From a virus (lineage: Duplodnaviria; Heunggongvirae; Uroviricota; Caudoviricetes): a stretch of DNA of 13,974 nt. The stretch is from IMG/VR virus record IMGVR_UViG_2531839579_000009; one strand, given 5' to 3'. Below are positions 1 to 13,764 of the stretch, piece after piece (position 1 is the stretch's first letter; each line of letters starts with the position of its first letter). The notes beneath the pieces are model-generated. The model ran no database searches and was not told the DNA's origin. It worked only from the letters and a program-made list of their open reading frames with translations. The translations under genes were made by a program, and so were the position numbers.

Positions 1-1577
1 CGTGGAAAATTGTCCGTAAAGGCAGGCATCAAGTTCCTGCTCCGACATGCCTGCGGGCAAAGGCCACGAAAGGCCAGCTCTCCGAAAGCGCACGAACATA
101 CTACAAACTGTTGATTTTGGTACACCCAGGCGACGCCCGGCCACAACCCGGGGTAAATGTTCTTCAAAGTGAAGACGTAAAGCTTCAGTGATCCAGGTCC
201 GGTGTTTCATACGATAGTGTCCATTAAAAATGATGGACATTATTTTTGTAGAGCCGGAGGAAACAGACCAGACGGTTTAAATGAGCCGGTTACAAAGCCA
301 GTGAGGCGGCGTATCTACTTTGCCCGCACTGCAGCGGCATTATCACTGCGGAGAAAAAGCGTGAGCTCAATAGTGCAGGAGTCTGGTTGCGTGAAGGGCA
401 GGTCATTGATCGTAACGGCAACGTTTCCGGTGAACCGCGCCGCTCCCGTATCGCCAGTTTCTGGATGGAAGGGCCAGCTGCTGCGTATCAGACCTGGGCG
501 CAACTGGTTTACAAATTACTGACTGCAGAACAGGAGTATGAAGCGACAGGAAGCGAAGAAACACTCAGGGCGGTTATCAACACCGACTGGGGATTGCCTT
601 ATCTTCCTCGTGCCAGCATGGAGCAACGAAAAAGTGAATTGCTTGAGCAGCGGGCAGAGCCAGTTCCTTCCCGCAGTGTGCCGGATGGCGTTAATTTCCT
701 TGTGGCGACAGTGGATGTGCAGGCGGGACGTCATCGCCGTTTTGTGGTTCAGGTAACGGGCTATGGCAGCCGTGGCGAACGCTGGATTATTGATCGTTAC
801 AACATCACGCAGTCATTGCGCGGTGACAGCGACGGGGAGAGCCAGCGAATTGATCCGGCCAGCTATCCGGAAGACTGGGATGTCCTGCTGACGGATGTTT
901 TTCATAAAAGCTGGCCGCTGGCCTCCGATCCTTCTCAACAAATGCGACTGATGGCAATGGCGGTGGACTCCGGCGGTGAAGACGGGGTCACTGATAATGC
1001 CTATAAATTCTGGCGTCGTTGCCGTCGTGATGGCCTTGGTAAACGTATTTACCTGTTTAAGGGCGACAGCATCCGGCGCGCAAAACTGATCACCCGTACA
1101 TTCCCTGATAACACCGGACGAACGGGCCGACGGGCGCAGGCCGCAGGTGATGTGCCGCTCTGGCTTCTTCAGACGGATGCCCTGAAAGATCGGGTGAATA
1201 ACGCGTTATGGCGTGACTCGCCAGGTCCCGGCTATGTGCATTTCCCTGACTGGCTGGGGAGCTGGTTTTACGACGAACTGACGTATGAAGAGCGGAGCAG
1301 TGACGGGAAATGGAGTAAGCCGGGTCGCGGTGCCAACGAAGCTTTTGACCTGATGGTGTATGCCGAGGCTCTGGTCATTCTGCATGGATACGAAAAGATC
1401 CGCTGGCCGGATGCACCGGAGTGGGCGAGCCGGGAAACCTGGCTGGAGTGTGTCCCGGACAGTACCGAACCGTCACCCTCACCGGAACCGGTATCCACGC
1501 CTGTTAAAAAACAAAAACGGAAGAAAACAGTAACTGACGATGTTAACCCCTGGCTGACTTCCGGAGGATGGTTATGA
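1..1577 (+). CDS. A: Terminase large subunit (lambda gpA-like), 5'-partial at window edge. Intact frame only from about 286 to 1577; homologous upstream segments lie in other frames.
   Basis: ORF 387..1577 translation (…WLREGQVIDRNG…FLVATVDVQAGRHRRFVVQVTGYG…WIIDRYNI…) aligns with the C-terminal half of lambda gpA as I recall it. A CPHC motif is in the same frame at about 313-324, upstream of the first ATG. Frames 0 and 1 are both open in different parts of 1-300. Confidence 0.8.
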
Positions 1578-1786
1578 ACCAGAATGATATCGAAGCCATG
1601 ATTCAGCGTTATACGGAAGCTGAAATGGCGGTGCTGGACGGAAAATCCGTCACCTTTAATGGTCAGCAGATGACAATGGAAAACTTATCTGAGATCCGAC
1701 AGGGACGGCAGGAGTGGGAGCGCCGCCTTGCGGCTCTGATTACACGACGACGGGGGCATCCCGGGTACCGGCTGGCGAGGTTCTGA
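1574..1786 (+). CDS. W: Head-tail joining / head completion protein (lambda gpW-like)
   Basis: About 70 aa with a C-terminal RRRG motif as in lambda gpW (…QRRRGPAGFYV). GGAGGA at 1563-1568 lies 6 nt upstream of ATG 1574. The start overlaps the terminase stop (ATGA) and the stop overlaps the portal start (TGATG). Confidence 0.75.
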   Translation: MNQNDIEAMIQRYTEAEMAVLDGKSVTFNGQQMTMENLSEIRQGRQEWERRLAALITRRRGHPGYRLARF

Positions 1787-3292
1787 TGGCAATTCTTGAT
1801 GATGTGATTGGCGTTTTTTCACCAGGATGGAAAGCGGCAAGGCTGCGTTCCCGTGCGGTGATCCAGGCTTATGAGGCCGTAAAAACGACGCGGACACACA
1901 AAGCCCGACGGGAGAACAGAACTGCCGACCAGTTAAGCCAGTACGGGGCCGTGTCGTTACGTGAGCAGGCCCGTTACCTTGATAACAACCACGATCTGGT
2001 TATTGGTGTATTTGACAAGCTGGAAGAACGGGTGGTGGGGAAAAACGGGATTATTGTCGAGCCACATCCGGTATTACGCAATGGGGCCATTGCCCGTGAT
2101 CTGGCAGCGGAGATACGTACCCGATGGAGTGAATGGTCTGTCAGCCGGAGTCACCGGGCAGTTTACCCGTCCGATGCTGGAACGTCTGATGCTGCGTACC
2201 TGGCTGCGCGATGGTGAGGTGTTTGCCCAGATGGTTTCCGGGCGCATAAACAGCCTGACGCCTTCTGCCGGTGTTCATTTCTGGCTGGAGGCGCTCGAGC
2301 CGGACTTTATTCCCATGACCAGTGATGAGAGCAACAGGCTGAATCAGGGCGTGTTTGTTGATGACTGGGGGCGTCCCGAAAAATATCTGGTGTATAAAAG
2401 TCGTCCTGTATCCGGACGGCAGATGGAAACCAAAGAAGTGGATGCAGAGCGAATGCTGCATCTTAAATTTGTTCGCCGTCTGCACCAGATGCGCGGGACG
2501 TCTTTATTGTCCGGTGTGCTGATCCGCCTCAGCGCCCTGAAAGAGTATGAAGATTCTGAGCTGACTGCAGCAAGGGTCGCCGCTGCTCTGGGGATGTACA
2601 TCCGCAAAGGCGACGGACAGAGCTATGAAACGGATGGTAATTACAGCAAGGAGAAGGAACGCGAGCTTACCATTCAGCCAGGCATTATTTACGATGATCT
2701 GAAACCCGGCGAAGAAATCGGAATGGTGAAGTCGGATCGCCCCAATCCTAACCTTGAAACTTTTCGTAATGCTCAGTTGCGTGCCGTGGCGGCGGGCAGT
2801 CGTCTGAGTTTTTCCAGTACAGCGCGCAACTATAACGGCACTTACAGCGCCCAGCGTCAGGAGCTGGTTGAATCCACTGATGGCTACCTGATCCTGCAGG
2901 ACTGGTTTATTGGTGCCGTCACCCGCCCGATGTATCGTGCATGGCTGAAACAGGCTGTGGCATCCGGTGTTATCAGGCTACCCCGCGATCTTGACCGTTC
3001 TTCACTGTATACCGCGGTGTATTCCGGACCAGTGATGCCGTGGATTGACCCTGTTAAGGAGGCTGAGGCCTGGAAAATCCAGATTCGTGGTGGAGCGGCG
3101 ACAGAATCAGACTGGGTACGTGCTGGTGGTCGTAATCCGGATGATGTCAAACGTCGGCGCAAGGCCGAAATTGATGAAAACCGCAAGCTGGACCTAGTAT
3201 TTGATACCGATCCGGCCAGTGATAAAGGAGGCAGTAGTGCCGCAACGAAACGACAGGAGCCGCAGCACACCGACGACCAGTCCGAAGATTAA
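1786..3292 (+). pseudogene. Phage portal protein, reading frame broken near 2140-2155 in this sequence
   Basis: ORFs 1714..2217 (frame 1) and 1961..3292 (frame 2) together form one portal-sized protein of about 500 aa. The switch occurs within agccggagtcaccggg. Position directly after gpW and before the prohead protease fits a portal. Confidence 0.8.
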
Positions 3293-3305
3293 TTCCTGGT
3301 TCAGG

Positions 3306-5264
3306 ATGCAGGCTGGTCACCAGAGTGACGCGGATATTTATATTTATGACGAGATTGGTTTCTGGGGTGTTACAGCGAAGCAGTTTATCAGTGATCTGAA
3401 TGCACTGGGCGATATCACCCACATTAATCTCCATATTAATTCACCGGGTGGCGATGTCTTTGAAGGCATCGCCATTTTTAATGCGCTGAAAACACATGGT
3501 GCGTCCATTACCGTTTATGTCGACGGTGTGGCGGCGTCAATGGCGTCGGTCATTGCGATGGTGGGAAATCCGGTCATTATGCCGGAAAACACCTTCATGA
3601 TGATTCATAAACCATTTGGCTTTACGGGCGGTGATGCGGAGGACATGCGCACCTATGCCGACCTGCTCGATAAAGTTGAGGCGGTTCTGTTACCCGCTTA
3701 TGCACAGAAAACCGGGAAAACCACCGATGAAATTGCTGCCATGCTGGCGGATGAGACCTGGATGTCCGGTGCCGAATGTCTGGCACAGGGATTTGCTGAT
3801 CAGGTGACGCCAGCCGTTAAGGCAATGGCATGTATTCAGTCAAAACGTACAGAGGAATTTAAAAAGATGCCGGAATCCATTCGAAACATGATTACTCCGC
3901 CACGCAACAGTGCTCCACGCGTACAGGATGATGAACCTGCAGCCTCCCGGACGCCAGTGCAGGCAGCAGCACCCGTGGTGGATGAAAACAGTATCCGTGC
4001 GCAGGTACTGGCAGAGCAAAAAGCGCGTGTAAACGGTATTAATGATCTGTTTGCCATGTTTGGCGGGCGTTATCAGACGCTGCAGGCTCAGTGTCTTGCC
4101 GATCCTGAATGTTCGCTGGAACAGGCCCGCGAAAAGCTGTTGAACGAGATGGGGCGCGAGTCCACGCCATCCAATAAAAATACCCCGGCTCATATTTATG
4201 CCGGTAACGGTAATTTTGTGGGGGACGGGATCCGCCAGGCGCTGATGGCGCGTGCCGGATTTGAAAAAACCGAACGTGATAATGTCTACAACGGGATGAC
4301 CCTGCGTGAATATGCCCGTATGTCACTGACTGAACGGGGTATTGGGGTTTCCAGTTATAACCCGATGCAGATGGTCGGTGCGGCGTTCACACACAGTACG
4401 TCTGACTTCGGTAATATTCTGCTGGATGTTGCGAACAAAGCCATTCTGCAGGGCTGGGAAGATGCCCCTGAAACCTATGAACAGTGGACGCGGAAAGGTC
4501 AGTTGTCTGATTTTAAAATTGCCCATCGTGTGGGTATGGGGGGCTTCAGTGCTCTGCGTCAGGTGCGTGAAGGGGCGGAATATAAATACGTCACCACCGG
4601 AGATAAACAGGCCACTATTGCACTGGCGACCTATGGCGAGCTGTTCAGTATCACCCGTCAGGCCATTATCAATGATGATCTGAATATGCTGACCGATGTC
4701 CCGATGAAACTGGGCCGTGCGGCGAAATCCACTATTGCCGATCTGGTTTATGCCATTCTGACGTCTAACCCGAAAATCTCCACAGATAATGTAAGTCTGT
4801 TCGATAAAGCGAAACATGCAAACGTACTGGAGAGCGCTGCAATGGACGTGGCATCGCTGGATAAAGCCCGCCAGTTGATGCGCGTTCAGAAAGAGGGGGA
4901 GCGTCATCTGAATATTCGTCCTGCGTTCGTACTGGTACCGACGGCGATGGAGTCTGTTGCTAACCAGGTCATTCGCTCCTCAAGTGTCAAGGGGGCTGAC
5001 ATTAACGCCGGTATTATTAACCCGGTGAAAGATTTTGCGACCGTTATTGCAGAGCCTCGTCTTGATGATAACAGCCTGACCACCTTCTACCTGGCTGCGT
5101 CAAAAGGCTCCGATACGATTGAAGTGGCTTATCTCAACGGTGTGGATACGCCATATATTGATCAGATGGAGGGCTTCAGTGTGGATGGCGTGACAACGAA
5201 AGTGCGTATTGACGCCGGTGTCGCGCCAGTTGATCACCGCGGTCTGGTGAAATGTACGGCGTAA
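3306..5264 (+). CDS. Fused prohead protease (ClpP/S14-like) - linker/scaffold-like region - major capsid protein (Mu gpT-like), single 652-aa ORF
   Basis: The N-terminal ~170 aa (…INSPGGDVFEGIAIFNALK…VDGVAASMASVIAMVG…) looks like a ClpP-family serine protease core. The middle is a low-complexity Q/A/E-rich segment. The C-terminal ~350 aa resembles Mu-like major head subunits. ATG 3306 is in frame, just after the portal stop at 3290-3292. No internal stop. Confidence 0.8.
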   Translation: MQAGHQSDADIYIYDEIGFWGVTAKQFISDLNALGDITHINLHINSPGGDVFEGIAIFNALKTHGASITVYVDGVAASMASVIAMVGNPVIMPENTFMMIHKPFGFTGGDAEDMRTYADLLDKVEAVLLPAYAQKTGKTTDEIAAMLADETWMSGAECLAQGFADQVTPAVKAMACIQSKRTEEFKKMPESIRNMITPPRNSAPRVQDDEPAASRTPVQAAAPVVDENSIRAQVLAEQKARVNGINDLFAMFGGRYQTLQAQCLADPECSLEQAREKLLNEMGRESTPSNKNTPAHIYAGNGNFVGDGIRQALMARAGFEKTERDNVYNGMTLREYARMSLTERGIGVSSYNPMQMVGAAFTHSTSDFGNILLDVANKAILQGWEDAPETYEQWTRKGQLSDFKIAHRVGMGGFSALRQVREGAEYKYVTTGDKQATIALATYGELFSITRQAIINDDLNMLTDVPMKLGRAAKSTIADLVYAILTSNPKISTDNVSLFDKAKHANVLESAAMDVASLDKARQLMRVQKEGERHLNIRPAFVLVPTAMESVANQVIRSSSVKGADINAGIINPVKDFATVIAEPRLDDNSLTTFYLAASKGSDTIEVAYLNGVDTPYIDQMEGFSVDGVTTKVRIDAGVAPVDHRGLVKCTA

Positions 5265-5953: not shown

Positions 5954-6535
5954 ATGAAGGGGCTTGAGAATGCTATCCGCAATCTGAACAGCCTTGATAC
6001 CCGTATGGTGCCACAGGCCAGCGCATGGGCGATAAACCGTGTGGCACAGAAAGCGGTCTCGGTCGCCACCCGGCAGGTTGCCGGGAATACCGTTGCGGGA
6101 GATAACCAGGTGAAAGGGATCCCCCTGAAACTGGTACGTCAGCGTGTCCGGGTGTTTAAAGCCAGTCCGTCAGGAAAAATGACGGCCAGGATCCGCGTTA
6201 ACCGGGGCAATCTGCCCACCATCAAGCTGGGGACAGCCCGGGTCAGACTGGCCCGGCGTGGTGGAAAACTGCAGTACCGTGGCAGTATTCAGCAACTGGC
6301 GAATGGCCGCTGGCATGTTCTGAGGCGTCTTCCTGAAGCGCGTTTTGCAACAGGGCATGTGATGCGGCGTATTGATGGCAAAAATCGTTACCCCATTGAT
6401 GTGGTGAAAGTCCCGCTGTCCGGACCGCTGACACAAGCATTTGAAGATGCCCGCGACCGCATTATTGCTGCGGAAATGCCGAAACAGCTGGGGTATGCAC
6501 TGAAACAACAACTGAGGTTATGGCTGACCCGATGA
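5954..6535 (+). CDS. Z: Minor tail protein Z (tail completion)
   Basis: 193 aa. MKGLENAIRNLNSL…NGRWHV…KNRYPIDVVK…LGYAL…QLR matches lambda gpZ (192 aa) along its length. AGAGG sits 6 nt upstream. Confidence 0.9.
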   Translation: MKGLENAIRNLNSLDTRMVPQASAWAINRVAQKAVSVATRQVAGNTVAGDNQVKGIPLKLVRQRVRVFKASPSGKMTARIRVNRGNLPTIKLGTARVRLARRGGKLQYRGSIQQLANGRWHVLRRLPEARFATGHVMRRIDGKNRYPIDVVKVPLSGPLTQAFEDARDRIIAAEMPKQLGYALKQQLRLWLTR

Positions 6536-6931
6536 ACCGACATACACAAATCCGCCAGGCCGTACTGGCACGCCTTCGGAACAGTGTGGAGACAGCGCCA
6601 CGTTTTTTGACGGGCTTCCGGCATTTTTGATGCGCAGGAACTGCCTGCCGTGGCGGTGTGGCTGAGTGATGCTCAGTACACCGGAAAAATGACGGATGAA
6701 GATGACTGGCAGGCTGTTCTGCATATTGCTGTCTTCATCCGGGCACAGGCACCGGATTCAGAGCTGGATATGTGGATGGAGAGCACCATTTTCCCGGCTC
6801 TGAATGATATACCGGCACTTTCCGGACTCATCGACACCCTGATCCCTCTCGGTTTTAACTATCAACGTGATAATGAGATGGCCACCTGGGCGATGGCGGA
6901 AATCACGTACCAGATCACGTACACGAATTAA
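6532..6931 (+). pseudogene. U: Tail terminator protein U, frame broken twice (about 6600 and 6626) in this sequence
   Basis: N-terminus MNRHTQIRQAVLARL… is in frame 1 to 6600, TFFDGLPAF in frame 0 (6600-6626), and FDAQELPAVAVWLSDAQYTG…DSELDMWMES…ITYQITY in frame 2 to the stop at 6929-6931. Each piece matches lambda gpU. The second break is in a T5 run. Confidence 0.85.
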
Positions 6932-6941
6932 GGAGGTGGTA

Positions 6942-7681
6942 ATGACCACACCAAATCCACTGGCAAAAACGAAAGGTGCGGGAACGACGTTCTGGATGTA
7001 ACCGGCAAGGCGATGCGTTTGCGAACCCTTTTCGGACACTGACTGGTGCGTCTTGCGATGGTGAAGGATCTGCAACCTGGCGAAATGACCGCTGATGCAG
7101 AAGATGACACTTATCTCGATGATGAAGATGCAGACTGGAAAACGACAACCCAGGGGCAGAAATCCGTCGGTGATACTTCGGCGACGCTGGCCTGGCGTCC
7201 GGGGGACAGCGGGCAGAAAAAACTGGTTCAGTTGTTCGACTCCGGTGAAGTCTGCGCGTTTCGTATCAAATATCCCAACGGTACTGTTGATGTTTTCCGT
7301 GGCTGGCTGAGTTCACTGGGTAAAACCATTGCCTCAAAAGACGTGATGACCCGCACCGTGAAAATCAGCGGTGTGGGGCGTCCGTATCTGGCAGAGGAAG
7401 GCACTGAAACCGTGGGCGTTACCGGGCTGACGGTGGCACCGGCATCTGCCAGTGTAAAAGTGGGAGCAACCACCACGCTGACCTTTACAGTAAAACCTGA
7501 CGGAGCCAGTGACAAAGCGATCAGTGTGCATTCGACAGATCCACAGACTGCCACGGTGACCCTGAACGGGCTTGTGGCCACGGTGAAAGGCGTGAAGCAG
7601 GGCAGTGTCAGCATTGTGGGCATGACTTCTGACGGCGATTTTGTGGCCGTGGCTGCGGTGGCTGTCAGCGCCGCAGGTTAA
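6942..7681 (+). pseudogene. V: Major tail tube protein V with C-terminal Ig-like domain; four frame breaks within 6998-7049
   Basis: AGGAGG at 6931-6936, ATG 6942. MTTPNPLAKTKGAGTTFWM runs into a stop at 6999. Homology to lambda gpV then continues in frame 2, frame 1, frame 0 and back to frame 2 from 7049 to the stop at 7679-7681. Confidence 0.85.
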
Positions 7682-7701
7682 CAGGACGATACTCATCATT
7701 T

Positions 7702-7725
7702 GCCCCGGTTATCCGGGGCTTTTTT
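7702..7725 (+). terminator. Rho-independent terminator after gene V
   Basis: GCCCCGG-TTAT-CCGGGGC (7-bp GC-rich stem) followed by T6, 21 nt after the V stop. Confidence 0.7.
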
Positions 7726-7741
7726 GCAGGTGGAGAACATG

Positions 7742-8128
7742 ATGTTTCTGAAACAGGGCTCGTTTAATTATGAAAAGCAGTCCGTGGTGCTCAGTGAGCT
7801 GTCCGGGCTGCAGAGAATTGAATATCTGGCGTTTGTTCAGCAGCGAACGGCAAAGTTTGATGCCGAAGAGGGAGAACTGCCGGAGGCTGAACGACAGATT
7901 GCTTTTCTGCGGATGGGGATGGATATCAATGCCTGGCTGGTTTCCCGCTCACTGTGGAATGCGGATCAGTCTAAGGATGTAGAGACGCTTTGCGCATCCG
8001 TTATTACAACATGGTCGTATGATGCCCTGGGTGCGGGGGCGGAGATGGTTCTGTCGCTGAGCGGTATGGGGGCCATTGATAATGCCGGGGATGATGAGCA
8101 TGAGGCGCTGACGCCGGAAAAGTCCTGA
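7742..8128 (+). CDS. G: Tail assembly chaperone G
   Basis: MFLKQGSFNYEKQSVVLSELSGLQRIEYLA… matches the lambda gpG N-terminus (MFLKTESFEHNGVTVTLSELSALQRIEHLA…). GGAG sits 6 nt upstream of ATG 7742. Stop at 8126-8128. Confidence 0.85.
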   Translation: MFLKQGSFNYEKQSVVLSELSGLQRIEYLAFVQQRTAKFDAEEGELPEAERQIAFLRMGMDINAWLVSRSLWNADQSKDVETLCASVITTWSYDALGAGAEMVLSLSGMGAIDNAGDDEHEALTPEKS

Positions 8129-8465
8129 CGCGGGAAATGCAGTTTGTCATGCGGCTTGCCCGGGAGTTCCGGCGGGCAGACTGGCGGCGGATGCTGTCGG
8201 AAATGTCGGCCACTGAGCTTGGTGAGTGGGGCGATTATTTCCGGATGCAGAGCTTCAGTGATGTGTGGATGGATGCGCAGTTTGCCTCGCTGAAGGCATT
8301 GATCGTGAGAATGGTGTCCGGCAGCAGTGATGCTGCGGTGGCTGATTTCAGCCTTTTACCGGAAGAGAACGGGATACCGGAGCGAACGGACGAAGAACTG
8401 ATGCATCTTGGGAAGGTATTTCCGGAGGTGTGCGTTATGGACCAGATAGCCAACCTGGTCATTGA
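8104..8465 (+). CDS. T: gpT segment of the G-T tail assembly chaperone (expressed only as a G-T fusion by -1 frameshift). 3' end uncertain: as written the frame reads through into H.
   Basis: The -1 frame relative to G encodes …REFRRADWRRMLSEMSATELGEWGDYFRMQSFSD…, which I recognise as gpT-like. There is no stop in this frame before 9615. A plausible gpT C-terminus (…GGVRYGPD… with stop at 8463-8465) is in another frame from about 8410. Confidence 0.5.
8116..8122 (+). promoter_or_regulatory. Candidate -1 programmed ribosomal frameshift site (G GAA AAG) for the G-T fusion
   Basis: Heptamer in the G frame 4 nt before the G stop. The -1 frame is open from 8104 and encodes a gpT-like sequence. 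Lambda uses G GGA AAG at the equivalent place. Confidence 0.5.
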
Positions 8466-11400
8466 TTTGGGGATTGATGCGGCAGAGTTTAAAAATGAAA
8501 TTCCCCGTATCAAAAACCTTCTGAATGGTGCCGCCAGCGATGCAGAACGGTCTTCTGCCCGTATGCAGCGTTTTATGGAGCGTCAGACTCAGGCCGCCCG
8601 GCAGACAACGCAGGCGGCTTCTTCGGCTGCAACAGCCGCCTCCGTCCATGCGCAGACGGTGGAGAAGAACGCACAGGCTCATGAACGCATGGCCCGCGAG
8701 GTGGAGAAAACCCGCCAGCGCATGGAGGCGCTGAGCCAGAAAATGCGCGATGAACAGGCGCAGGCCATGGCTCTGGCGGAGGCTCAGGATAAAGCGGCTG
8801 CTGCGTTTTATCGTCAGATTGACAGTGTGAAACAGGCCAGTGCGGGGCTGCAGGAATTACAGCGTATTCAGCAGCAGATCCGACAGGCCAGAAACAGTGG
8901 CGGGATTGGTCAGCAGGATTATCTGGCGCTGATTTCTGAGGTTACGGCGAAAACCCGTGTTCTTACACAGGCTGAGGAAGAGGCTACCCGACAGAAAGTG
9001 GCGTTTATCCGTCAGCTTAAAGAGCAGGCAACCCGCCAGAATCTTTCTTCTTCTGAGTTGCTTCGTGCTAAGGCTGCCCAGCTGGGGGTAAGCAGTGCTG
9101 CAGAAGTGTATATCCGCAAAATGGAGCAGGCAGGAAAAGCCACGCATTCGCTGGGTCTGAAAAGTGCAGCGGCCCGTCAGGAGATAGGCGTTCTGATAGG
9201 TGAACTGGCCCGCGGCAATTTAGGTGCGCTGAGGGGATCCGGAATAACGCTGGCTAACCGTGCCGGGTGGATAGACACATTGATGTCACCGAAAGGCATG
9301 ATGCTTGGCGGGGTTATTGGCGGTATTGCCGCGGCTGTCTATGGTCTGGGTAAAGCCTGGTATGACGGTCAGAAGGAGGGGGAAGAATTTAACCGCCAGC
9401 TGTCGCTGACGGGGCATTATGCCGGAGTCACTGCCGGGCAGCTGTGGACGCTCAGTCGTGCTATTTCCGGGAATGGTATCACGCAACATGCTGCAGCCGG
9501 TGCGCTGGCTCAGGTGGTGGGGAGTGGTGCATTTCGTGGAAACGATATCGGTATGGTGGCGAGAGTGCCGCACAGATGGAGCGATCGGTTGGCCAGTCGG
9601 TCAGCGATACCATAAGTCAGTTTAAGCGGCTGAAGGATGATCCTGTAAATGCCGCGAAGGCTCTGGACAATGAGCTGCATTTTCTTACTGCCACTCAGCT
9701 TGAGCAGATACGCGTCCTTGGGGAGCAGGGGCGGTCCAGTGATGCTGCACGGATAGCCATGTCTGCACTGGCAGAGGAAACCGGTCGGCGTACTGCGGAT
9801 ATTGATAATAACCTCAATGCGCTTGGCAGTACGCTGAAGTATCTGTCTGATTTGTGGAGTCGTTTCTGGGATGCGGCCATGAATATTGGTCGTGAAGACT
9901 CGCTGGATGAACAGATTGCCGCTTTACAGGAGAAAGTGTCGCGGGCGAAAAGACTCCCCTGGACGGCATCATCTTCTCAGGTTGAATACGATCAGCAGCG
10001 TCTTAACGATCTTCAGGAGAAAAAACGCCAGAAGGATTTGCAGGATGCAAAAGAGCAGGCAGAGCGGAATTATCAGGAGCAACAGAAACGCCGTAATGCT
10101 GAAAATGCTGCACTGAACCGGATGAATGAAACGGAAGCAGCACGACATCAGCGTGAAATTGCGCGTATTAATGCCATGCAGTACGCCGATCAGGCTGTCA
10201 GGGATGCGGCGATACAACGTGAAAATGAACGTTACGAGAAAGCCCTGGCATCCGGTAAGAAAAAAACACGCGAAACCCGTAATGATGAGGCCACCCGGTT
10301 ATTGCTGCAGTACAGTCAGCAACAGGCACAGGTGGAAGGACAGATTGCTGCTGCAGACAGTCAGCAGGCATTGCCACTGACAGGATGACAGAAGCGCATA
10401 AACAGCTTCTGGCTCTGCAGCAGCGCATCAGCGACCTGGACGGGAAAAAACTGACGGCAGATGAAAAGAGTGTGCTGGCCCGTAAAGATGAACTGATTCA
10501 GGCACTGACGCTGCTGGATGTAAAACAGCAGGAGCTTCAGAAACAGACGGCACTCAACGATCTGAAGAAAAAAACAATTCAGCTGACCAGTCAACTGGCT
10601 GAAGAAGAGCGCGCTCAGCGTCAGCAACATGACCTGGATATCGCCACGGTGGGTATGGGTGATCAGCAGCGGCAGCGATATCAGGTACAACTGAGTCTTC
10701 GCCAGAAATACCAGCAACAGCTGGAGCAGTTGAGGCGGGATAGTGAGCAGAAAGGAACATATAACACGGATGACTACAGAAAGGCCGAGCAGGCGCTGAC
10801 GGAGAGCCTGAACCGACAACTGAATGAGAATCGCCGTTACTGGCAACAGCTTGAAGTTGCTCAGGGTGACTGGAAAAACGGAGTCCTGCGTGCACTCCAG
10901 AATGTCACTGAGGAAGCGGATAACACGGCAGAAACAGCAGAACAGGTGTTCTCGTCAGCCTTCAGCAACATGGGAAATGGCCTGGCAACTTTTGTCACTA
11001 CCGGCAAACTCAATTTCAAATCCTTCACCTCTTCTGTGCTGTCAGATATGGCGAAAATCCTGGCGCAGATAGCTTTAATGAAAGCGGTAAAAGGTATTGC
11101 TTCCGCGCTGCCTTTTGATCTTGTAGCCAATGCTGATGGCGGTGTTTATCAGTCGGCTGATTTGAGTCGCTACAGTGGCACGGTGGTTAACCGTCCGACG
11201 TTTTTTGCTTTTGCAAAAGGCGCGGGTGTGATGGGGGAAGCGGGACCTGAAGCCATTCTGCCATTGCGTCGTGGTGCTGACGGTAAGCTGGGGGTTGTGG
11301 CGGATATTGGGGGTTCAGGTATGGCGATGTTTGCCCCGCAGTACAACATCGAGATCAATAACGATGGCACGAACGGGCAGATAGGTCCGGCTGCCCTGAA

Positions 11401-11491
11401 GGCGGTTTATGACCTCGGGAAAAAAGCGGCAGCGGACTTTATGCAACAGCAGGCCCGTGATGGTGGTCGGTTAAGTGGAGCATATCGGTAA
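8437..11491 (+). pseudogene. H: Tail tape measure protein H (about 1018 aa) with two frame breaks (about 9560 and 10384)
   Basis: Start MDQIANLVIDLGIDAAEFK matches the lambda gpH N-terminus. Three consecutive ORFs (8137..9615, 9444..10388, 10385..11491) in frames 1, 0 and 2 each continue the homology. C-terminus …NNDGTNGQIGPAALKAVYDLGKKAAADFMQQQARDGGRLSGAYR matches the lambda gpH end. Confidence 0.85.
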
Positions 11492-11820
11492 TGGAGACGT
11501 TTCACTGGAAAGTGCGCCCGGATATGAATGTGGTATCAGAGCCGAAAGTGGTGACAGTGAAGCTGGGCGATGGTTATGAACAGCGTCGTGCGGCGGGACT
11601 GAATAACCAGTTGTCGACTTACAGCGTGACGATACGTGTTCGTAAATGTGACCACCCATCTTTAAAAGCCTTTCTGGAACGGCACGGTGGCGTCCGTGCA
11701 TTTCAGTGGACGCCACCTTATGACTGGAAACCGATCAGGGTGGTTTGTCGTAAATGGTCGGCAAGCGTGGGGGCGCTGTGGGTAACCATAACGGCAGATT
11801 TTGAACAGGTCGTGGCATAG
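11491..11820 (+). CDS. M: Minor tail protein M
   Basis: 109 aa. METFHWKVRPDMNV…GDGYEQRRAAGLN…TYSV…FLERHGG…WTPPYDW…FEQVV matches lambda gpM (109 aa) end to end. Start overlaps the H stop (TAATG). Confidence 0.9.
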   Translation: METFHWKVRPDMNVVSEPKVVTVKLGDGYEQRRAAGLNNQLSTYSVTIRVRKCDHPSLKAFLERHGGVRAFQWTPPYDWKPIRVVCRKWSASVGALWVTITADFEQVVA

Positions 11821-11829
11821 GAGGCTCTG

Positions 11830-12495
11830 ATGCAGGATATTCCACAGGAAACACATCATGAGACGACACGCCTCACTCAGTCAGCCCAGGTGGTGCTCTG
11901 GGAAATCGATCTGACAGAGGTCGGTGGTGAACGTTATTTTTTCTGTAATGAGCAGAACGAAAAAGGTGAGCCGGTCACCTGGCAGGGGCGGCAGTATCAG
12001 GCATACCCCATTCAGGGGACGGGATTTGAACTGAACGGAAGGGCAGTGCTCCGCCACCTGACGGTTCTAACCTGACGGATGGTCACCGGGATGGCGGAAG
12101 ACTGCAGAGTCTGGTCGGCGGAACGGTGGTCGGCGTAAGGTTTACGCCCGTTTTCTGGATGCGGTGAACTTCGTCAACGGAAACAGAGCCGATCCGGAGC
12201 AGGAGGTGATCAGCCGCTGGCGCATGAGCAGTGAGCGAACTGAGGCGGTAGTGCCTCTTTGTCTTCCACCCGACGAAACGGATGGGCTGTTTTTCCGGGC
12301 GATCATGCTGGCCAACACCTGCACCTGGACCTATCGCGGGAGAGTGCGGTTATCGGTCCGGCGTCGCGGATGAATATGACCAGCCACGTCCGATATCACG
12401 AAGGATAAATGCAGCAAATGCCTGAGGGCTGTAAGTTTCGCAATAACGTCGGCAACTTTGGCGGCTTCCTTTCCATTAACAAACTTTCGCAGTAA
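11830..12495 (+). pseudogene. L: Minor tail protein L, multiply frame-broken between about 12039 and 12430
   Basis: AGGAGG sits 5 nt upstream. The first 69 aa (MQDI…VVLWEIDLTEVGGERYFFCNEQNEKGEPVTWQGRQYQ…ELNG) are near-identical to lambda gpL. After 12039, exact lambda-like peptides appear in alternating frames, ending in-frame with …GFLSINKLSQ and a stop at 12493-12495. Confidence 0.85.
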
Positions 12496-12499
12496 TCCC

Positions 12500-13226
12500 A
12501 TGACAAGACAGAATCAGCGATTCTGGCGCACGCCCGGCGATGTGCGCCAGCGGAGTCGTGCGGCTTCGTGGTGAGAACGCCGGAGGGGAAAGATATTTTC
12601 CCTGCGTGAATATCTCCGGTGAGCCGGAGGCGTATTTCCGGATGTCGCCGGAGGACTGGCTGCAGGCAGAATGCAGGGTGAGATTGTGGCGCTGGTCCAC
12701 AGCCACCCCGGTGGTCTGCCCTGGCTGAGTGAGGCGACCGGCGGCTGCAGGTGCAGAGTGATTTGCCGTGGTGGCTGGTCTGCCGGGGGCGATTCATAAT
12801 TCCGCTGTGTGCCGCATCTCACCGGGCGGCGCTTTGAGCACGGGGTGACGGACTGTTACACGCTGTTCCGGGAGCTTACATCTGGCGGGATTGAGATGCC
12901 GGATTTTCATCGCGGGGATACTGGTGGCGTCACGGTCAGAATCTCTATCTGGATAATCTGGAGGCCACAGGGCTGTATCAGGTGCCGTTGTCAGCGGCGC
13001 AGCCGGGCGATGTGCTGCTGTGCTGTTTTGGTTCATCGGTGCCGAATCATGCCGCCATTTACTGGGGACGGGAGCTGCTGCACCATATTCCTGAACAACT
13101 GAGAAACGAGAGAGGTATACCGACAAATGGCAGCGACGCACACACTCCCTCTGGCGTCACCGGGATGGCACGCATCTGCCTTTACGGGGATTTCAACGAT
13201 TTGGCCGCCGCATCGACCTTCGGTGA
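12500..13226 (+). pseudogene. K: Tail tip assembly protein K (JAMM/MPN plus NlpC/P60-type domains), multiply frame-broken
   Basis: MTRQNQRFWR… start. Lambda gpK-like peptides (CGFVVR; GGERYFPCVNIS…EAYFRMSPEDWLQAE; EIVALVHSHPGGLPWLSEA; DRRLQVQSDLPWWLVCRG; PHLTGRRFEHGVTDCYTLFR; GIEMPDFHR; NLYLDNLEATGLYQVPLSAAQPGDVLLCCFGSSVPNHAAIY…ELLHHIPEQL) are spread over all three frames. Confidence 0.8.
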
Positions 13227-13764
13227 AAACGGGGCGAAGCCATCCGGGCGCTGGCCATGCAGTCCCGGCGTTTCGTCAGAACTGAGCGACGGCTGGTATC
13301 AGGTACGCATTGCCGGGCGTGATGCAGGTGAAACCGAATTGTCTGCCCGTCTTAATGAGCCGCTGGCAAATGGTGCCGTGATCCAATCGTGCCGCGTCTG
13401 GCGGGAGCTAAAAGTGGCGGTGTGTTTCAGGTGGTGCTGGGGGCGGCGTTGATTGCGGTGGCATGGTGGAACCCTGTGGGCTGGCTGGGTGCCGCGGCTG
13501 TATCGGGCATGTATGCGGCAGGGGCCAGTATGATCCTGGGCGGGTGGCGCAGATGCTGGCACCGAAAGCCAGGACGCCACGGCAGCCAGTACAGATAACG
13601 GCAAACAGAACACCTATTTTTCCTCACTGGATAACATGGTTGCTCAGGGCAATGTTTTGCCTGTTCTGTACGGGGAAATGCGTGTGGGGTCGCGGGTGGT
13701 TTCTCAGGAGATCAGCACGGCAGACGAAGGGGACGGTGGTCAGGTTGTGGTGATTGGTCGCTGA
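13127..13764 (+). pseudogene. I: Tail tip assembly protein I, multiply frame-broken; overlaps the 3' end of K
   Basis: MAATHTLPLASPG start. MARICLYGD, QRFGRRIDLR, VKTG…PAFRQ, LSDGWYQVRIAGRD, AGAKSGGVFQVVLGAA, VAQMLAPKARTPR and DNGKQNTYFSSLDNMVAQGNVLPVLYGEMRVGSRVVSQEISTADEGDGGQVVVIGR match lambda gpI but in alternating frames. Stop at 13762-13764. Confidence 0.8.

Follow-up and report, generated by a model that had tools for sequence, protein, structure and literature searches.

Portal frame break in a lambdoid prophage contig of ETEC isolate E. coli p0305293.11 is very probably a draft-assembly artefact

The portal gene of a lambda-like prophage in the ETEC isolate E. coli p0305293.11 is divided between two reading frames by the absence of two nearby bases. 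This frame break is really present in the sequence as written. It has very probably been created during draft assembly, as part of a chimeric or collapsed consensus, rather than by mutation in the bacterium, since the missing bases are exactly the columns that separate two near-identical prophage alleles. We infer the artefact from comparisons with related copies rather than from direct sight of it in the reads. The only real lesion of the prophage visible here is an IS66 insertion in the terminase gene.

The window analysed is the entire contig AQBU01000050.1 (13,974 nt) of GCA_000358575.2. It represents a lambda-like morphogenesis block whose tail genes extend on the right as far as the beginning of gpJ, and the contig ends in repeats on both sides, namely an IS66 element on the left and the gpJ region on the right. 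The features considered are given below, where A and B denote the two alleles described later.

1..293, minus strand: IS66-family end (ISCro1-like, tnpA side) inside the terminase large-subunit gene, from the match to 120899 and ETEC-2265.
294..1577, plus strand: 3' part of the terminase large subunit (nuclease part of gpA), severed from the 5' part by IS66, from the annotation in relatives.
1574..1786, plus strand: gpW-like head-tail joining gene, intact, 70 aa, from the gene call.
1786-3292, plus strand: portal gene of the lambda family, read in frame 1 to the stop at 2215-2217 and then in frame 2.
1786..2217, plus strand: 5' piece of the portal as written, frame 1, 143 aa, ENG52084.1, from translation and the PF05136 match.
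2144..2150, plus strand: the lesion, with one base missing at 2144/2145 (T in A, C in B) and one at 2149/2150 (G in A, A in B), from the alignments.
2145..3292, plus strand: 3' part of the portal as written, frame 2, from translation, the gene call and the PF05136 match.
2189-3292, plus strand: deposited gene call within the 3' part of the portal, 367 aa, ENG52085.1.
3237..5264, plus strand: ClpP-like prohead protease/major capsid fusion, from the 675-aa gene call with PF00574 and PF25209.
6241..13577, plus strand: tail genes Z, U, tube, G/T, tape measure, M, L, K and I, with about 70 further 1-2-bp deletions.

On the left the contig terminates within the IS66 repeat, and homology to IS-free phages begins at 294. 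In the closed genomes 120899 and ETEC-2265, the counterpart of positions 1..293 is annotated as IS66-like tnpA/tnpB/transposase between two terminase pseudogene halves, and that of 294..1577 is labelled "terminase gpA endonuclease subunit, incomplete". The called product of this part (396 aa, 387-1577) is matched by PF20454 and is present on seven contigs. Considering that the same IS66::terminase junction occurs in at least five closed ETEC genomes (120899, 103605, 204446, 504237 and ETEC-2265), the terminase defect is, by this shared junction, judged to be real and inherited within a lineage. The gpW-like gene that follows is annotated as head-to-tail joining protein W or head-tail adaptor in phages Ayreon and cdtI. 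Downstream of the portal, the ClpP/capsid fusion is uninterrupted but chimeric at SNP level, with an A/B patchwork that varies among sibling contigs. Its start may be placed at 3237 (675 aa) or at 3306 (652 aa), of which the 675-aa product is on record and the 652-aa product is not. The 675-aa product is also found on a contig of another assembly (L006), which at 98.0% overall is no closer to the window.

The original prediction described the portal as split over frames 1 and 2, truncated at 2217 and explicable by two nearby 1-bp losses, and this description agrees with the sequence in each respect. From the ATG at 1786, frame 1 reads through ...IRTRWSEWSVS and then RSHRAVYPSDAGTSDAAYLAARW to the TGA at 2215-2217; its translation is authentic portal up to 2144, followed by 24 out-of-frame residues before the stop. 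Frame 2 reads ...GVTGQFTRPMLERLMLRTWLRDGEVF... to the stop at 3290-3292, and the rest of the portal in this frame begins GVTGQFTRPMLERL... and ends at 3292. Both called pieces (1786-2217 and 2189-3292) match Pfam PF05136 (Phage_portal_2) in the precomputed hits, and a continuous ORF of about 490-500 codons is absent as written because of the stop at 2217. Nucleotide alignment to intact portal homologues, which had been suggested as a check, shows two single-base losses. At the lesion, the window reads CAGCCGGAGTC (aligned as CAGCC--GGAGTC) where homologues read CAGCCCGGAAGTC or CAGTCCGGAAGTC, and the portal spans 1507 nt in the window versus 1509 nt in homologues from 16 phages and about 1850 complete E. 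coli genomes. Two one-base losses reproduce the window, whereas any single 2-nt deletion needs an extra substitution. With the two bases restored, the 5' and 3' pieces are joined into one uninterrupted 502-codon ORF, the product of which is identical to the copy B portal of ETEC-2265 at 496/502 residues.

The variation at this site was surveyed in IMG/VR with a pattern in which the central positions could take any base; together with a few loci fetched earlier, this gave 128 copies. Only two positions at the site are polymorphic among them, and these are the two bases absent from the window; the variants are CCC..AA (66 copies), TCC..AA (45) and TCC..AG (17), and nothing else. Allele A reads CAG-T-CCGGA-G-GTC (in 120899, 602354 and ETEC-2265 copy A) and allele B reads CAG-C-CCGGA-A-GTC (in L011 and ETEC-2265 copy B), with both SNPs at synonymous third-codon positions (AGT/AGC and GAG/GAA). 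No A/B difference other than these two lies between reference columns 2125 and 2410. Relative to allele A, the portal of the window carries 11 substitutions, all 11 of which are B alleles, leaving none unexplained, and 120899 and 602354 are near-identical in their behaviour as parent A. The two alleles also differ naturally in portal length at 3257-3259, where TAG in A ends the protein after ...ATKRQ (491 aa) and GAG in B lets it run on as EPQHTDDQSED (502 aa). The 3' end of the portal in the window has the B form despite its linkage to the A-type IS66 junction.

The occurrence of portal sequence in both frames across a short overlap is also what might be expected of a naturally split portal or of a programmed ribosomal frameshift at this site, an explanation with next to no probability given that all homologues are continuous. 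No naturally split homologue, which the original prediction had named as a finding that would overturn it, was seen among the 16 phages, the 128 copies or 2003 copies in complete E. coli genomes. No slippery heptamer is found by inspection at 2140-2150 (GTCAGCCGGAG), and neither an X XXY YYZ heptamer nor a homopolymer run is found on direct reading of 2138-2152 (CTGTCAGCCGGAGTC). Moreover, the shift that a programmed event would require consists of two missing nucleotides at SNP columns. With neither a split homologue nor a slippery site, this explanation was excluded. The 2-nt loss itself occurs in 0 of the 2003 copies in 5,426 complete E. coli genomes, where the best match reaches 97.5%, which corresponds to the two gaps. 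Exact searches with a 37-mer spanning the lesion found none in genome_contigs (one genome per species), viral_contigs (IMG/VR) or metagenome_contigs (JGI), and among 15 billion proteins both truncated portal products (143 aa and 367 aa) have exact matches on AQBU01000050.1 only.

An assembly origin would involve the following steps. The strain would hold at least two paralogous mEp460/cdtI-like lambdoid prophages with head and tail genes about 97-98% identical, copy A having the IS66-cut terminase and the 491-aa portal allele, and copy B being intact with the 502-aa allele. Illumina reads of the 100-nt class from both copies would have been merged into one contig by the overlap-layout-consensus Celera Assembler. 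Overlap-based assemblers that tolerate a few percent of mismatch merge the reads of paralogues. At discordant columns, the consensus would take A's base, B's base or none; the last outcome may result if realignment turns one mismatch column into two half-gap columns, each of which can then be called as a gap, whereby the discriminating base is lost. At 2144-2150, both adjoining A/B columns (T/C and G/A) would have been dropped, with the loss of 2 nt and a shift of frame. Where the reads of one copy dominate locally, its base would be called, producing blocks on the scale of reads or inserts in a pattern that varies between runs. The ends of the contig, in IS66 and near the gpJ repeats, fit this picture of merged repeats. 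If it is correct, the reads at the site should be a mixture of CAGTCCGGAGGTC and CAGCCCGGAAGTC. Known consensus errors in collapsed repeats likewise combine merged paralogues, a mosaic, errors at discriminating columns, repeat ends and differences between replicates. Unlike the usual errors of this kind, those in the window consist almost entirely of dropped bases and seldom of miscalled or ambiguous ones, a spectrum that appears to implicate the consensus caller of this assembler.

The isolate comes from a setting in which the same locus was sequenced repeatedly. P0305293 is a patient from Dhaka with cholera-like ETEC diarrhoea in 2011 (PMC4309559), and the genomes of the project were obtained from multiple colonies per patient with Illumina HiSeq2000, 300-bp inserts and >200x coverage, and assembled with Celera Assembler (PMC4462620). 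The mBio paper names P0299917 and P0299438, not P0305293, as the subjects with non-clonal isolates. The colonies of P0305293 are probably clonal, to judge from the absence of this patient among the two named subjects in an article whose main text omits P0305293. Six sibling contigs (L132-L137) carry the identical 396-aa IS66-truncated terminase product under accessions neighbouring that of the window; two bear the names p0305293.5 and p0305293.6, and the other four are linked by neighbouring accessions only.

The portal is intact in all six siblings, with 491 or 502 aa, and at the lesion site four read TCC..AG (A) and two read CCC..AA (B). A genuine pseudogene would be expected to show its lesion again in independent sequencing of the clone or locus, and the siblings are intact. 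A single continuous frame on resequencing had also been named beforehand as evidence against a split portal, and these six independently sequenced and assembled contigs, as the nearest substitute for resequencing, give just such a frame. At the approximately 70 SNP columns compared within the first 6 kb, no two of the seven contigs, the window included, have the same A/B patchwork; there are 12-16 haplotype switches per contig in 5.6 kb, and divergence between contigs amounts to 4-12 substitutions per kb. A fine A/B mosaic that differs among replicate assemblies is what an artefact would be expected to produce. The siblings also have frameshifts of their own elsewhere, with Z split into three pieces, the tube gene split, and the tape measure gene split into two or three pieces. 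Several gap columns of the window recur among them in other combinations: L132 shares 7021/7030/7054, of which L134 has a part, L133 shares 9591 and 10381, and L134 shares 11000 and 11017. Judged from these alignments, differences of this kind at one locus cannot be true differences among the colonies of one patient.

Dropped bases extend well beyond the portal. BLAST was used to project the window onto strain 602354 as the intact reference, and a panel of 124 related copies was used to define polymorphic columns as those with a minor allele count of at least 2. Relative to the reference, the window shows 75 deletion runs, of which 68 comprise a single base, and no insertion. Of these one-base runs, 52/68 lie on, or are shift-equivalent to, a polymorphic column against a background of 11.8% (binomial P = 1e-34), which is the concentration at copy-discriminating columns expected of a consensus artefact; a genuine pseudogene would instead be expected to have lesions unrelated to paralogue sites and to include insertions. 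Global alignment to 120899, the most similar closed genome, gives about 50 deletion events and no insertions outside one indel-rich variable patch. In the alignment to the intact reference, deletions are clustered at 6241-7047 and densest at 12038-13577, and one- or two-base deletions also occur at 8411, 9565, 10354 and 10972-10989. The genes broken in this way (U, tube, tape measure, L, K and I) are intact in closed relatives, and the split gene calls include U at 93 aa, the tube at 211 aa and the tape measure at 488+270+368 aa. The deposited 488-aa product (8149-9615), with Phage_tail_T and TMP_2, is an artefactual fusion resulting from the loss at 8411. At the Z/U boundary (6241-6390), A and B differ by a short, indel-rich divergent patch, and neither parent aligns well there with the window or with siblings L132-L134. 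Homopolymer error was considered and ruled out, as most deletions fall outside homopolymers and the platform was Illumina.

Genuine decay, in which the portal of the IS66-disrupted prophage in p0305293.11 truly lost two bases, has been weighed against these data and is very unlikely. The deposited sequence does carry the frameshift, the terminase is truly IS66-split in several closed genomes, so that relaxed selection on the downstream head genes is possible, and with copy A already defective, selection would not act against a second, real frameshift. However, the six siblings with the same IS66 junction have intact portals, and in closed 120899 and ETEC-2265, which share that junction, all head and tail genes are intact. 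In addition, the two lost bases coincide exactly with the A/B SNP columns, neither truncated product is found on a second contig, and decay would have to account for the contig-wide deletion runs, free of insertions and enriched on SNP columns; we know of no mutational process that yields such a pattern. A real mutation is therefore unsupported, considering the intact siblings and closed relatives and the position of the lost bases on two A/B columns. While the split as described in the original prediction stands, the biology implied by it, a real mutation that blocks head assembly, is not supported.

Two homologous prophages in one chromosome can recombine, and a different A/B mosaic in every sibling contig might accordingly reflect real and frequent short-patch gene conversion between resident prophages during one human infection, with the frameshift as a private by-product in colony 11. 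This possibility is exceedingly improbable. It needs 12-16 short-patch exchanges per 5.6 kb independently in each colony, and gene conversion copies either allele and does not delete the discriminating base. The recurrence of the same gap columns in different combinations among siblings also argues against it, as does the finding that the five relatives with the IS66 junction and 602354 without it, the closest listed closed relatives, match the window at the same identity, 120899 and 602354 serving alike as parent A.

The assembly reading requires two similar prophages in one strain, an arrangement that is seen directly in ETEC-2265, a closed genome from a diarrhoeal stool in Dhaka that carries both the A and the B prophage. 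Its copy A, at 1.27 Mb, has the IS66-split terminase and a 491-aa portal, and its copy B, at 5.03 Mb, has an intact terminase and a 502-aa portal that is 100% identical to the B allele; the morphogenesis genes downstream are all intact in both copies. For p0305293, the presence of two near-identical copies is deduced from the occurrence of both alleles at the IS66-linked locus, and we infer that p0305293.11 itself carries copy B. With the two ETEC-2265 copies as parents, the window has the base of A or of B at 309/353 informative columns, and 50 of its gaps are at or adjacent to A/B differences. These copies explain the half of the window with the head genes well, and the two-parent model leaves 68 substitutions and 35 gaps unexplained, mostly in the tail genes L, K and I. 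The L/K/I genes are common to more lambdoid prophages, and relatives such as 120899 have three portal-bearing places. To account for the remaining differences, one must postulate either a third paralogue or a version of copy B specific to the clone. The stretch from 12000 to 13700, with its 35 gaps and many substitutions outside the A/B model, suggests that reads of a third lambdoid prophage with homologous L/K/I genes were merged there.

Among phages, the nearest relatives are cdtI, mEp460, Ayreon and HannyBb, with 97.0-97.5% identity over almost the whole window, and a colinear prophage is found in about 1800 complete E. coli genomes. The mEp460/cdtI/Ayreon-like phages share with the window the order of terminase, gpW, portal, ClpP/capsid fusion and tail genes. 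Their portals belong to the lambda gpB family (PF05136), and the portal gene of the window is 97.3-98.4% identical at the nucleotide level to those in 16 phage records and up to 99.1% identical to portals of E. coli prophages. In contrast to all of these homologues, the window has 2 nt fewer and a split ORF. The copy A prophage of ETEC-2265, 120899, 103605, 204446 and 504237 has the same IS66 junction and is colinear over the 13,974 nt at 98.2%; in 120899 and ETEC-2265, for which the annotations were read, the genes downstream of the IS are intact, including the 491-aa portal. Unlike this prophage, the window mixes in copy B alleles and has dropped bases.

The finding serves only as a caution. 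The portal fragments annotated in the deposited record, ENG52084.1 and ENG52085.1, together with many split tail genes, are almost certainly absent from the cell. In Celera/HiSeq drafts of strains with two similar prophages, pseudogene counts, calls of prophage intactness and allele catalogues would be inflated. The chimeric portal "alleles" of the siblings have entered RefSeq and UniRef, each being a singleton among 15 billion proteins yet bearing WP_ and UniRef identifiers.
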